Positions 16,416 through 19,654 of a DNA stretch of 64,000 nt are shown piece by piece. Source of the stretch: a virus; the IMG/VR virus record IMGVR_UViG_3300027749_000065, positions 1 through 64,000 of that record; one strand, written 5' to 3'. Position 1 is the stretch's first letter, and each line of letters starts with the position of its first letter. The position numbers and the translations under genes were made by a program. A model generated the notes under the pieces. That model saw nothing but the letters and a program-made list of their open reading frames with translations, made no database searches and was not told the origin of the DNA.

Positions 16416-17108
16416 TTATTTGTTAAATAAATGTACTTTATATTTTTTATAAATTCTTTGTATTAATTCATCTCTTTTTTGGAATGATTCGTCTAATTCT
16501 TTAATACCAATACCTTCTTCATTTTTTAAAATTTCAATTAAATCAAAAATACCTGTGTTTTTTATGTCTGATTGAAAAGGGTCAGCCATTAAAATTAATT
16601 TTGAAGATGTACTTTTTCTTGTTATGAAAGAAACTTGTTCATGTAATGTCGCACCTTGTATTTCATCTGCAATAATACAACAATTTTCAAAAGTAACACC
16701 TCTACAATATTGTATTGGTTCAAAAATTACTTTTTTTTCCATAAAAAGTTTATGTGTTTCAGATTTACCAACAAGTTTTTCCATGTTGTCGACAAATGAA
16801 CGTAAATACTGTTCTACCTTATCATCTGATGTACCGGGTAAAAACCCCATACTTCTACCAATTTCAATAATTGGTTTAGTTAGAATTACTTTTTCAATGT
16901 TTTTTTTCCTTAATTCAGTTAAAGCATAATGAAGTGCTATTGTTGTTTTACCACAACCTGGATCAGCTAACAATAATGTTATCTTATTATTTCTGATAAA
17001 TTCAACAACTTCTTTTTGATTTTCATCTAAAGTAATCTCTAATTGTCTTGGATTTTTTGGAATTTTTTTCTCTTTGTAAACATCATCGGTGTGGTGTTTT
17101 GAAGTCAT
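16416..17108 (-). CDS. phoH: PhoH-like ATPase
   Basis: ADPGCGKT, MGFLPG, RGVTF, IADEIQ, ADPFQSD; start reassigned to ATG 17108. Confidence 0.9.
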   Translation of the reverse strand: MTSKHHTDDVYKEKKIPKNPRQLEITLDENQKEVVEFIRNNKITLLLADPGCGKTTIALHYALTELRKKNIEKVILTKPIIEIGRSMGFLPGTSDDKVEQYLRSFVDNMEKLVGKSETHKLFMEKKVIFEPIQYCRGVTFENCCIIADEIQGATLHEQVSFITRKSTSSKLILMADPFQSDIKNTGIFDLIEILKNEEGIGIKELDESFQKRDELIQRIYKKYKVHLFNK

Positions 17109-17174
17109 ATTATATCTTTTATTAATAAATATATCTTCAAAACCCAATACTTTATATATGTATTTTTTTATAAT

Positions 17175-17210
17175 AAAAAAAACCAATCAATTTTAATGAT
17201 TGGGTTTTTT
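17175..17210 (-). terminator. Terminator after the dUTPase C-fragment
   Basis: Minus strand CCCAATCA-loop-TGATTGGTTTTTTTT. Confidence 0.75.
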
Positions 17211-17226
17211 AAAAAGTGTGAGATAT

Positions 17227-17526
17227 TTATGATCCAGTACTACCAAATCCACCACTACCTCTATCACTATCAGATAATGTATCTGTTTCAATAAATTTAA
17301 TTTGTGGATAAGGTAAAATAATGATTTGAGCACCTCTATCACCAACTTTGTAATCAGCATCAAATGCATCATGTACCTTTTTAAAGGTAGCTTGGATTTC
17401 ACCTCTATACCCACAATTATGTAAACATAAATTATTTCCAAAGAAATTATGATTTTTTTCTACTGTTAAATGATAAATTGGTTTACTATTAGTTTTTTCA
17501 ATTTTTTTTATTTTGGTATATTTCAT
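17227..17526 (-). CDS. dut: Split intein C-fragment (37 aa) plus dUTPase C-terminal half
   Basis: MKYTKIKKIEK..IYHLTVEKNHNFFGNNLCLHN|CGYRGEI...DRGAQ...RGSGGFGSTG (dUTPase motifs 3-5). Confidence 0.92.
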   Translation of the reverse strand: MKYTKIKKIEKTNSKPIYHLTVEKNHNFFGNNLCLHNCGYRGEIQATFKKVHDAFDADYKVGDRGAQIIILPYPQIKFIETDTLSDSDRGSGGFGSTGS

Positions 17527-18346
17527 TTACTTTATTTTTAATCTTATTTAATGTTATTTTTTTTGTTTTATAATCATTTTCCCATATTATAATGACTTCA
17601 TACCCATTATCGGTTAATAATTTAACCCGTTGATTATCATTTTCCCATATTTCTTTAGCGGTTTTTCTAATTTGTTTATGGTAATAATCGGGATTAAAAA
17701 ATAATGGATTACAGTGCCAATAATCACCATAACATTCAATTAATATTTTATTATTTATTAAAATATCAGGAAATGTTTTTCTTATTTTTAAATCTATAAA
17801 TCCATTTGAATCAACTGTTAAATTTTTAATATTTAATTTTAAAAATTCAAATATTTCTTTTTCAAATTTAGATGTTCTTTTACCAACAAATTTAGACTTA
17901 CACTCATTTGAACAATAACCTTCATCCTCCCAATTTGAACTAATATATACTTTATCACAAGAATTACATTTTCTTTTTATTCTACCTGATAAGTGTTTAC
18001 ATTCATTTGAACAAAATTTAGAAACTTTTCGATAATTCCAAGTTTCATATTCTTTACCACAATGATCACATGAAAATTTATTTTTTTTTAATTTTATAGT
18101 ATTATTATTTTTCTGTTGATTCTTACTTGCACATGATATTGAGCAAAATCTTCTTTTAGTGTAATTTTGAACCTCAACTTCTTTATCACATTCTTCACAT
18201 TTAATAATTTTTCTTTTTCTTAATGGATTTAATATTGTTGACATTGAATTGATTCTACATTCATTTGAACAATATTTTGAATGATCTCTATTTGTTAAAA
18301 ATTCTTTACTACATTGTAAGCATATTTTTTCTTGTTTTTCACACAT
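17498..18346 (-). CDS. Free-standing homing endonuclease (Vsr/DUF559-like) with repeated Cys zinc-ribbon motifs
   Basis: Four CxxC..FCS.xC repeats; PDILI..LIECYGDYWH; IIWE. Confidence 0.8.
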   Translation of the reverse strand: MCEKQEKICLQCSKEFLTNRDHSKYCSNECRINSMSTILNPLRKRKIIKCEECDKEVEVQNYTKRRFCSISCASKNQQKNNNTIKLKKNKFSCDHCGKEYETWNYRKVSKFCSNECKHLSGRIKRKCNSCDKVYISSNWEDEGYCSNECKSKFVGKRTSKFEKEIFEFLKLNIKNLTVDSNGFIDLKIRKTFPDILINNKILIECYGDYWHCNPLFFNPDYYHKQIRKTAKEIWENDNQRVKLLTDNGYEVIIIWENDYKTKKITLNKIKNKVNEIYQNKKN

Positions 18347-18352
18347 ATAACC

Positions 18353-18385
18353 ACATTCTATTACAATAAATATCCAATAGAATGT
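18353..18385 (-). promoter_or_regulatory. Hairpin enclosing a late promoter upstream of the endonuclease
   Basis: 10-bp inverted repeat ACATTCTATT/AATAGAATGT with ATATTTAT (minus strand) in the loop. Confidence 0.7.
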
Positions 18386-18402
18386 AAAAGAATATGATAT
18401 AT

Positions 18403-19110
18403 TTACATAAATCTTAAGATTTCGTCATTTTCTGTTAAATCAAAAACTTTTTTCCATCCTGATTTAGTAAAAACTTCTTTTTCATGTGGTAATTCTACAA
18501 TATCTCCATCTTCTGTGGTGATTCTCAATAAATCTTTATTTTCTACTATCCACATATCTGTAACCATATCAGTTTCTATTGAATTTAATTCTTCGTTATA
18601 TGATAAAATTGGTATTGATATATTTTCAAATAAATCTTCAACATTAATATCCCCATTAATAGTTTTTATTTTTGTTCCAGATGGAACACAATCTACAACC
18701 CCGACTGAATTTGTTAATAGTAAATCATACTTTCTAACAGATGATCTTGGGAACACTAATCCAACATAACCTATAGGTATTTCTAATGCAATTCCAAAAC
18801 CGTATGTTATATCTACATTAGTTTTGTTTATTATTTCAGTTATTGTTAAATCCATTCCCGCATCCCCATCTTTTGAATATGATGGTATAACTGCATTTTC
18901 TTTTAGTTTTTTAATTTTAATCTGTAATGATTTGAGATTAGATGTCATACTTTCTTGTACATCGGTATTTAATTTTGTTAATAGATCATTTAAATCTGTA
19001 ATAAAATTTAAATCAATCTCTTCCTCATCTTCAGATTTTATTTGATTCTCAAAACCTTTTAGTTGTTCAATGTAATCTTTAATCTCTTCTTTTTCCATGT
19101 TCTTTTTCAT
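18403..19110 (-). CDS. dut: dUTPase N-terminal half plus split intein N-fragment (95 aa)
   Basis: GDAGMDL, PRSS, NSVGVVD|CVPSGTKIKT...GWKKVFDLTENDEIL*. Confidence 0.92.
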   Translation of the reverse strand: MKKNMEKEEIKDYIEQLKGFENQIKSEDEEEIDLNFITDLNDLLTKLNTDVQESMTSNLKSLQIKIKKLKENAVIPSYSKDGDAGMDLTITEIINKTNVDITYGFGIALEIPIGYVGLVFPRSSVRKYDLLLTNSVGVVDCVPSGTKIKTINGDINVEDLFENISIPILSYNEELNSIETDMVTDMWIVENKDLLRITTEDGDIVELPHEKEVFTKSGWKKVFDLTENDEILRFM

Positions 19111-19654
19111 CTATTATTGCCAATTCGATTCCTTGTTTAACAATGTTAGTTAATGCCTCGGAATAATATTTAGCTTGTTTATCAGTTTCGTCTTTATCCA
19201 AATTTACAATTGCTTGGAACTCAACTGGTATCAATTTAACCCCATTATTAATTGCATAATAAGCGGATCTTTCACCTGTTCTTAATGAAACAATTTCTTC
19301 ATTAAATTCATACATTTTACCCAAGTTTTTTCTGTGCCATTCACTTGGGTTTGGTTTAAATAAAAAAACCTTACCTATTTGTGAAAGAAATACACACTTA
19401 ATAATGGATTCCTTATTTTGTCTAATTGTTTCAGGTAATAAATCATTAATTTGGATAGCGTATTTACATGCTTTAATCAAATGATTTAATAAACCACCCG
19501 GAAAACAACCATACATCTCCAATGTAGGAGATGCGGGTGAAAGATAAAATCCATCACCTAAAAAATCTAATAATTCAGGGGTAAAGATATTATACTTATT
19601 ATTTGTTTCAATAAACTTCTGTTTATTTGACTCTAATTGTTGTGTTGTTAACAT
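19079..19654 (-). CDS. HD-domain-like protein (degenerate)
   Basis: SPAS..GCFPGGLLNH; HD motif replaced in FLSQIGK. Confidence 0.6.
   Translation of the reverse strand: MLTTQQLESNKQKFIETNNKYNIFTPELLDFLGDGFYLSPASPTLEMYGCFPGGLLNHLIKACKYAIQINDLLPETIRQNKESIIKCVFLSQIGKVFLFKPNPSEWHRKNLGKMYEFNEEIVSLRTGERSAYYAINNGVKLIPVEFQAIVNLDKDETDKQAKYYSEALTNIVKQGIELAIIDEKEHGKRRD

Follow-up and report, generated by a model that had tools for sequence, protein, structure and literature searches.

How can a phage obtain a dUTPase from a gene that lies in two pieces with another gene between them? This question is raised by a locus in IMGVR_UViG_3300027749_000065, a 98.8-kb record from an uncultured freshwater phage, of which we analysed positions 1-64,000 (the window, 64,000 nucleotides in all). 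Three open reading frames (ORFs) lie head to tail on its minus strand: 18403-19110 (235 aa), 17498-18346 (282 aa) and 17227-17526 (99 aa). The outer two carry the halves of a dUTPase (dut), each fused to one half of an intein (IntN and IntC), and the middle one carries a free-standing endonuclease. The initial annotation of this sequence had proposed a dUTPase fractured by a naturally split intein, with an active enzyme arising only after protein trans-splicing. We find that the locus as a whole is best explained by a mobile cassette of split intein and homing endonuclease in motif 3 of dut, the halves of which would be trans-spliced into dUTPase, and we consider this explanation likely to be correct.

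A dUTPase gene broken at motif 3 by intein halves

The dUTPase profile of Pfam (PF00692, 129 positions) is shared out between the outer ORFs, with positions 2-82 matched in the 235-aa ORF and positions 72-129 in the 99-aa ORF, and both halves score above the Pfam cut-off. Aligned with solved dUTPases, the 235-aa ORF follows them until the residues G-V-V-D, the counterpart of G-T-V/I-D in motif 3, and diverges thereafter. The Intein_splicing profile (155 positions) is divided as well, its positions 10-92 matching the C-terminus of the 235-aa ORF and positions 120-155 the N-terminus of the 99-aa ORF. The break lies inside motif 3: GVVD is followed by an intein N half that opens with its first cysteine (Cys1) and ends at a stop codon, and, in the last ORF, a methionine opens the intein C half, which ends in LHN and is followed by CGYRGE. 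All five motifs of trimeric dUTPases are readable across the two ORFs (GDAGMDL, PRSS, GVVD+CGYRGE, GDRGAQ and RGSGGFGSTGS). The N-extein (18691..19110, minus strand) holds motifs 1 and 2 and the first half of motif 3, and matches dUTPases in the PDB at E values down to 3.4e-9. The C-extein (17227..17415, minus strand; 62 aa and a stop codon) begins with Cys+1 and runs from CGYRGE through motifs 4 and 5. The codon of Cys1 occupies 18688-18690 and that of Cys+1 17413-17415. The split at motif 3 that had been proposed is therefore borne out by the position of the ORFs, by the division of the Pfam profile and by the alignment to solved dUTPases.

IntN (18403..18690, minus strand) comprises 95 aa followed by the stop codon at 18403-18405, and is acidic, with 9 Lys or Arg against 21 Asp or Glu residues and a net charge of -12. 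IntC (17416..17526, minus strand) comprises 37 aa and is basic, with 7 Lys or Arg against 2 Asp or Glu residues and a net charge of +5. These lengths and charges agree with those first described. An IntN profile made from 7 sequences matches the Ssp DnaB mini-intein (1MI8, E 4.7e-9), NrdJ-1 (8UBS, 3.4e-5) and also DnaE inteins, and an IntC profile, likewise from 7 sequences, matches the Spl DnaX mini-intein (7CFV, E 4e-9) and gp41-1 (6QAZ, 3.4e-6). When the two halves were joined in a script (132 aa), the product could be aligned end to end with a contiguous mini-intein in a QueC gene (locus L109) and with another split intein (locus L110), with all blocks present and the split point falling at the linker of the QueC mini-intein. 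This end-to-end alignment, together with the matches to solved inteins, indicates that IntN and IntC make up one complete intein.

The end residues of a class 1 intein (Cys or Ser at position 1, a terminal His-Asn, and Cys, Ser or Thr at +1) are present, and all three that the initial annotation had pointed out, namely Cys1 at 18690, the terminal HN and Cys+1, were found. The residue that precedes the intein, at position -1, is the catalytic Asp of the host dUTPase. Block B of IntN reads P-H-E-K and block F of IntC reads IYHLTVEKNHNFF.

The same three-gene layout occurs in 8 IMG/VR loci (L001/L081, L002/L082, L003/L084, L085, L086, L088/L092, L091 and L095/L096), a count that is a lower bound and stands for at least 8 distinct viral contigs. 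In these loci Cys1, the terminal His-Asn (H36-N37 of IntC) and Cys+1 are invariant among inteins that are 36-100% identical. A dUTPase N half fused to the same IntN is found in 17 protein clusters (90% identity), in which Cys1 is again invariant, and the N-extein cores of the split alleles diverge down to 28-35% identity. One fractured allele is also present in GenBank (WGS JFJP01), and parts of the stretch were found in 24 sequencing runs from 20 studies. Since the arrangement recurs in independent contigs and parts of the stretch occur in that many runs and studies, the arrangement is neither a chance configuration nor an assembly artefact. The ratios of non-synonymous to synonymous substitution (dN/dS), determined for several pairs, fell in the ranges 0.15-0.39 (IntN), 0.03-0.12 (IntC), 0.18-0.34 (endonuclease) and 0.12-0.41 (exteins), indicating that all parts of the split locus are under purifying selection. 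The conservation of the splice residues, combined with this selection, suggests that the two halves are trans-spliced.

A comparison with related phages that carry an intact dut, which had been proposed in the initial annotation, yielded syntenic intact alleles in two relatives (L014 and L090), with the same neighbours as in the window, a 76-aa ORF upstream and PhoH downstream. The residue that follows the motif 3 Asp is Ser in 105/105 of the closest intact dUTPases and Cys in all split alleles. A contiguous, unsplit dUTPase intein was absent from the best 120 matches listed (129-412 aa), which is weak evidence of absence, and only 3 dUTPase matches exceeded 412 aa, all of them unrelated N-terminal fusion proteins. 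For the N-extein cores (82 columns), the best tree contains 8 changes between the split and intact states, of which well-supported branches force only 1, and polyphyly of the split alleles is not demonstrated by this tree.

In addition, we examined where the N half begins. The limits of its ORF, 18403..19110, hold as first given; the start is probably not at 19110, the likelier start codon being the ATG at 19098 (MEKEEI), at which both the homologues and the recorded gene call (P0001, 231 aa) begin. An acidic and poorly conserved extension of ~60 aa (18931-19098, minus strand) precedes the enzyme core, in split and intact phage dUTPases alike, and a sub-group of dUTPases (P0015, P0018, P0019 and L085) is without it.

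Relatives of the dut IntC are also found in other genes. The QueC gene mentioned above (L109:3197-4459) holds a contiguous mini-intein related to it (…YDITVEKNHNFFAN…HNC), with a normal TSDH block B. A closely dut-related IntC with the same …YDITVEKNHNFFAN…HNC signature starts the C half of a class II ribonucleotide reductase at L093:101-1813.

The endonuclease and the mobility of the cassette

The middle ORF (17498..18346, minus strand; 282 aa) overlaps the IntC ORF by 29 nt at its 3' end. Its first 150 residues form a zinc-ribbon part made of five CxxC...CSxxC repeats, with Tyr or Phe before CS, and residues 155-282 (~17501-17884) form a Vsr-like nuclease domain that carries IECYGDYWHCNP and IWE. 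Matches found by sequence only were marginal, with Pfam MTES_1575 at E 5.5e-4 (under the cut-off) and Vsr at E about 0.09. An AlphaFold model built from 56 homologues reached a mean pLDDT of 94, and the top Foldseek match of this model in the PDB was E. coli Vsr (1CW0, probability 1.00). Using VIA-align, the model scored Z 11.0 against Vsr 1CW0 (117 aligned residues, rmsd 3.3), Z 10.6 against the DUF559-like 3HRL and Z 10.4 against the catalytic domain of I-Bth0305I (3R3P; 97/98 residues, rmsd 2.9). Because sequence similarity was marginal, the Vsr-like assignment was settled by this comparison of folds, and by its modelled fold the middle ORF is a Vsr-type nuclease, in line with the Vsr/DUF559-type endonuclease originally annotated between the dUTPase halves.

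Conservation among the 56 homologues is complete at D194, G207, H211 and E256 and at least 90% at E204, W210 and D237. This pattern fits the Asp, extra Glu, Trp-His and Asp of the Vsr-like family described by Dassa, London, Stoddard, Schueler-Furman and Pietrokovski in 2009 (PMC2677866), the correspondence to Vsr residues being assigned by motif order and not by inspected superposition. The endonuclease belongs to a large family, of which 6045 cluster representatives were counted at E up to 0.001.

To follow the history of the cassette, we compared the window, segment by segment, with the split locus of IMGVR_UViG_3300020731_000016 (L081). At the DNA level, the two are 99.7% identical in IntN, 98.2% in the spacer, 99.4% in the endonuclease gene and 100% in IntC, and 79.6% identical in the N-extein, 79.5% in the C-extein and 80-84.5% in the neighbouring genes. 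The cassette as a whole is thus ~99.5% identical between two phages whose dUTPase flanks are ~80% identical. The mismatches end at 18703, which is 12 nt ahead of the codon of Cys1, and restart at 17410, 5 nt past the end of the intein; over the ~1290 bp of high identity between these points, there are seven differences. Since identity switches from one level to the other at the ends of the intein, the whole cassette, with the Cys+1 codon included, has moved recently and laterally as one unit between related phages. Homing by the endonuclease that the cassette encodes would be expected to produce such a transfer in one piece, delimited by the ends of the intein. Compared with L084, a more distant locus, the window shows a like pattern, being 80-90% identical in the coding parts of the cassette, 77% in the spacer and 63-65% in the exteins.

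The nuclease gene varies among the split loci. In L088:3171-3994, only 201 aa of the endonuclease are left, without the nuclease domain, and ~220 nt of non-coding sequence precede IntC, with both intein halves intact. Decay of the endonuclease beside intact intein halves fits a host that is dependent on the intein afterwards. The same contig contains, downstream, an IMPDH gene with a large contiguous intein. The cassettes of L091 and L095 encode a different nuclease, which is weakly TnsA-like (E 0.0033, under the cut-off).

We also searched for signals around the endonuclease gene. A hairpin (18339..18397, minus strand) occupies the 56-nt spacer between the IntN stop codon and the endonuclease start, with an inner stem of 13 bp and an outer stem that reaches the G of the endonuclease AUG; its fold energy is -17.2 kcal/mol (z -3.4 versus shuffles). 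A similar hairpin lies over the endonuclease AUG in L085, L091 and L095 and not in L084, L086 and L088. Its loop contains ATATTTAT (18366-18373, minus strand), and, as judged by eye, 6/7 loci have an (A)TATTTAT motif in the gap that separates the stop codon of IntN from the start of the endonuclease, including the spacers of the window and of L084, L085, L088, L091 and L095. Considered as a promoter, ATATTTAT is without enrichment in the window (37 found versus 31.9 expected) and stays a mere lead, and a scan for sigma-70-type promoters was at chance level (24 found versus 23.6 expected). A consensus scan for terminators gave 3 sites in 2.9 kb versus 0.4 expected, and a terminator-like hairpin followed by a T-run lies at 17183..17203 (minus strand), 24 nt past the stop codon of the dUTPase C half.

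Finally, two further insertions were observed in other genes. PhoH adjoins dut and, in the window (16416-17186, minus strand), holds no intein; in a closely related contig it measures 591 aa (L081:4360-6135 = L001:6941-8716), and an insert of ~335 aa there follows the P-loop GCGK and includes a LAGLIDADG domain (Pfam). By eye, this insert has an Ala start and a THN+T end. A Trp follows its block B His, F4 is Cys and the residue that precedes HN is Thr, which is the W-C-T pattern known from class 3 inteins. In L110:2384-4732, a clamp-loader gene (RFC/gp44-like AAA+) is fractured in the same manner as dut. Its N half ends with an intein N half that follows ILDE and begins with Cys, its C half starts with an IntC that ends in THN+C, and a 319-aa TnsA-like endonuclease lies between them (26.7 bits in Pfam, at a cut-off of 26.5).

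Proposed trans-splicing and its alternatives

In the mechanism that we propose, a mobile cassette consisting of IntN, the hairpin spacer, the Vsr-like homing endonuclease gene and IntC sits in motif 3 of dut, directly after the catalytic Asp. Three proteins would be made from the locus, a DutN-IntN fusion, the endonuclease and an IntC-DutC fusion. The acidic IntN and the basic IntC would associate and fold into a 132-aa mini-intein, which would ligate the dUTPase pieces by means of Cys1, the terminal Asn and Cys+1. The predicted spliced product is a dUTPase of ~198-202 aa with the junction GVVD-CGYRGE, which would then trimerise. In co-infecting relatives, the endonuclease would cut intein-free dut alleles (GV[IV]D-SGYRGE), and repair would copy the whole cassette into the cut allele and bring the Ser-to-Cys change along.

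Several observations weigh against this proposal. Block B lacks the T-x-x-H motif: in a profile alignment to the DnaB intein, the Pro of P-H-E-K falls on the Thr and the Lys on the His. The His at the second position of P-H-E-K is not conserved either, being replaced by Tyr, Leu, Ala or Lys among homologues. The canonical Thr and His are missing from every dUTPase split intein that we saw, the clade of L091 and L095 having T-E-N-T. Position F4 of block F varies between His and Asp. The block F Asp is absent from the main clade, which has IYHLTV with His at F4; the L091/L095 clade has TYDITV, with Asp at F4, and SNF in place of HNF. Friedel et al. (PMC6333167) describe the block B His as essential to many inteins; a very small subset is naturally without it and compensates by another residue. 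Given its absence here, splicing competence is not to be assumed. In addition, the CheckV completeness of the record is ~30%, which leaves room for a second, intact dut elsewhere in the genome, although none is present in the 98.8 kb. The sole sign at the transcript level is a metatranscriptome run (X3) that contained 66% of the sampled words, which may be DNA carry-over and is by itself no proof of expression.

Because the block B His is absent, the only serious rival to trans-splicing is that the intein halves no longer splice and act solely as a tight non-covalent clamp that holds two dUTPase fragments together. Besides the loss of both block B residues in all dUTPase split inteins, this idea can draw on the NrdA of phage Aeh1, an enzyme split by an endonuclease and devoid of an intein, which is reported to assemble without splicing (PMC3045599). 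A mere clamp, however, would not explain why the splice nucleophiles and the terminal His-Asn are invariant across clades that are only 36% identical, nor why every split allele has Cys at a +1 position that is Ser in all 105 intact relatives. Judging from dUTPase structures, the active site would probably be obstructed by a 132-aa intein retained beside the catalytic Asp in motif 3, and natural inteins that lack the block B His and still splice do exist (PMC6333167). We therefore regard a clamp without splicing as unlikely. That an active dUTPase requires trans-splicing is suggested by the invariant nucleophiles, by purifying selection and by a break that adjoins the catalytic Asp, and this suggestion is weakened by the missing block B His.

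Two other explanations fit the data poorly. The split dut could be a pseudogene that is decaying after insertion of an endonuclease, in a phage that uses the dUTPase of its host or another one. The record does cover only part of the genome, and in one locus (L095:3998-4306) the C-extein ends aberrantly (…SVSEIITLPFYCFINKK) and lacks motif 5, possibly through a frameshift, decay or a sequencing error. Such decay is nonetheless very improbable in view of dN/dS values well under 1 in both exteins and both intein halves for several pairs, of five intact dUTPase motifs and of an arrangement kept in many diverged phages. Alternatively, a group I or group II intron bearing an endonuclease ORF could be removed from the RNA, with the intein-like segments being incidental. 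Vsr-like endonucleases do occur in group I introns too (PMC2677866), but intron families had no match in 16900-19400, even at E up to 1, and the flanking segments are true halves of an intein, share the reading frame of the exteins, are subject to purifying selection and have ends that coincide with the boundaries of the mobile unit. RNA splicing, which the initial annotation had named as the alternative to be considered, is accordingly unsupported, and we give it almost no weight.

If the halves are indeed trans-spliced, the missing block B residues invite a further-reaching proposal, which we put forward tentatively and hold to be somewhat doubtful. The dUTPase split inteins may be a natural lineage, widespread and still mobile, in which trans-splicing is efficient although both block B residues, Thr and His, are missing, another catalytic set being used. 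In that case they would form a subclass of distinct mechanism, from which new orthogonal split inteins with a 37-aa C half could be drawn. The catalytic set may consist of Lys at B10 and His at F4 in one clade, and of Thr at B10 and Asp at F4 in the other, and the catalytic Asp of the host at position -1 may assist.

Relation to known fractured genes and inteins

The fractured genes described by Dassa et al. in 2009 have as hosts the gp41 helicase, IMPDH, NrdA, NrdJ, DnaE, DNA ligase, terminase and one unknown protein, and an intein-less SbcD-like case is listed as well (PMC2677866). The precedents cited in the initial annotation (gp41, NrdA/NrdJ and IMPDH) are all among them. In that study, the Vsr-like endonuclease family occurred at half the loci, together with hairpins before the endonuclease ORFs and overlapping reading frames. 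dUTPase is not one of its eight host types and is nowhere mentioned in it. Full-text literature searches that combined intein or split intein with dUTPase, dUTP or deoxyuridine likewise returned, from the library searched, no paper with dUTPase as an intein host, in keeping with the remark made at the outset that no such example was known. dUTPase is thus a new host, and the site a new insertion site, for a fractured-gene layout known since 2009, and the catalytic set is non-canonical.

The dut locus shares much with the genes of that earlier study. In both, a split intein interrupts a conserved enzyme of DNA metabolism at a conserved motif, the two halves flank a free-standing endonuclease gene of the same strand, a hairpin is found upstream of the endonuclease ORF, reading frames overlap, and the DNA is phage-like and comes from aquatic metagenomes, a freshwater lake included. 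The dut locus differs in its host and in its site after the motif 3 Asp, in an intein family that is without the block B Thr and His, and in the direct evidence, here at the DNA level, that the cassette has recently moved laterally as a whole.

I-Bth0305I is a Vsr-like homing endonuclease from the recA intron of Bacillus phage 0305phi8-36. The dut endonuclease resembles it (3R3P), as well as E. coli Vsr (1CW0), in the fold of its nuclease domain and in the positions of the conserved Asp, Glu, Trp-His and Asp. Unlike I-Bth0305I, it is free-standing between intein halves instead of intron-encoded, and its N-terminal DNA-binding part consists of five tandem zinc ribbons. With the split inteins gp41-1, NrdJ-1 and DnaE (6QAZ, 8UBS, 4KL5 and others), the dut intein shares a split at the usual point of endonuclease insertion, a short IntC (35-40 aa), halves of complementary charge, and Cys1 and a terminal Asn as residues of the splicing chemistry. 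It departs from them in having P-x-x-K in block B and His at F4, and not T-x-x-H and Asp, and in that the host's catalytic Asp stands at its -1 position. Like the orthologues of the Tko CDC21-1 intein (PMC6333167), it lacks the block B His and presumably relies on a compensating residue. Those archaeal inteins, however, are contiguous and carry a bulky Leu at -1, whereas the dut intein is split, has Asp at -1 and resides in an unrelated host. Candidate compensating residues in the dut intein are Lys at B10 and His at F4.

Our results add a new host enzyme and a new insertion site to the short list of naturally fractured genes, and provide a clean case of mobility in which a split intein and a free-standing endonuclease travel as one homing unit. 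Naturally split inteins are widely used as tools for protein ligation, and the role of the block B histidine is still debated. The short split inteins (95 + 37 aa) of the dUTPase loci form a natural family that is diverse and lacks this histidine. For the phages that carry them, dUTPase activity probably hinges on post-translational ligation.

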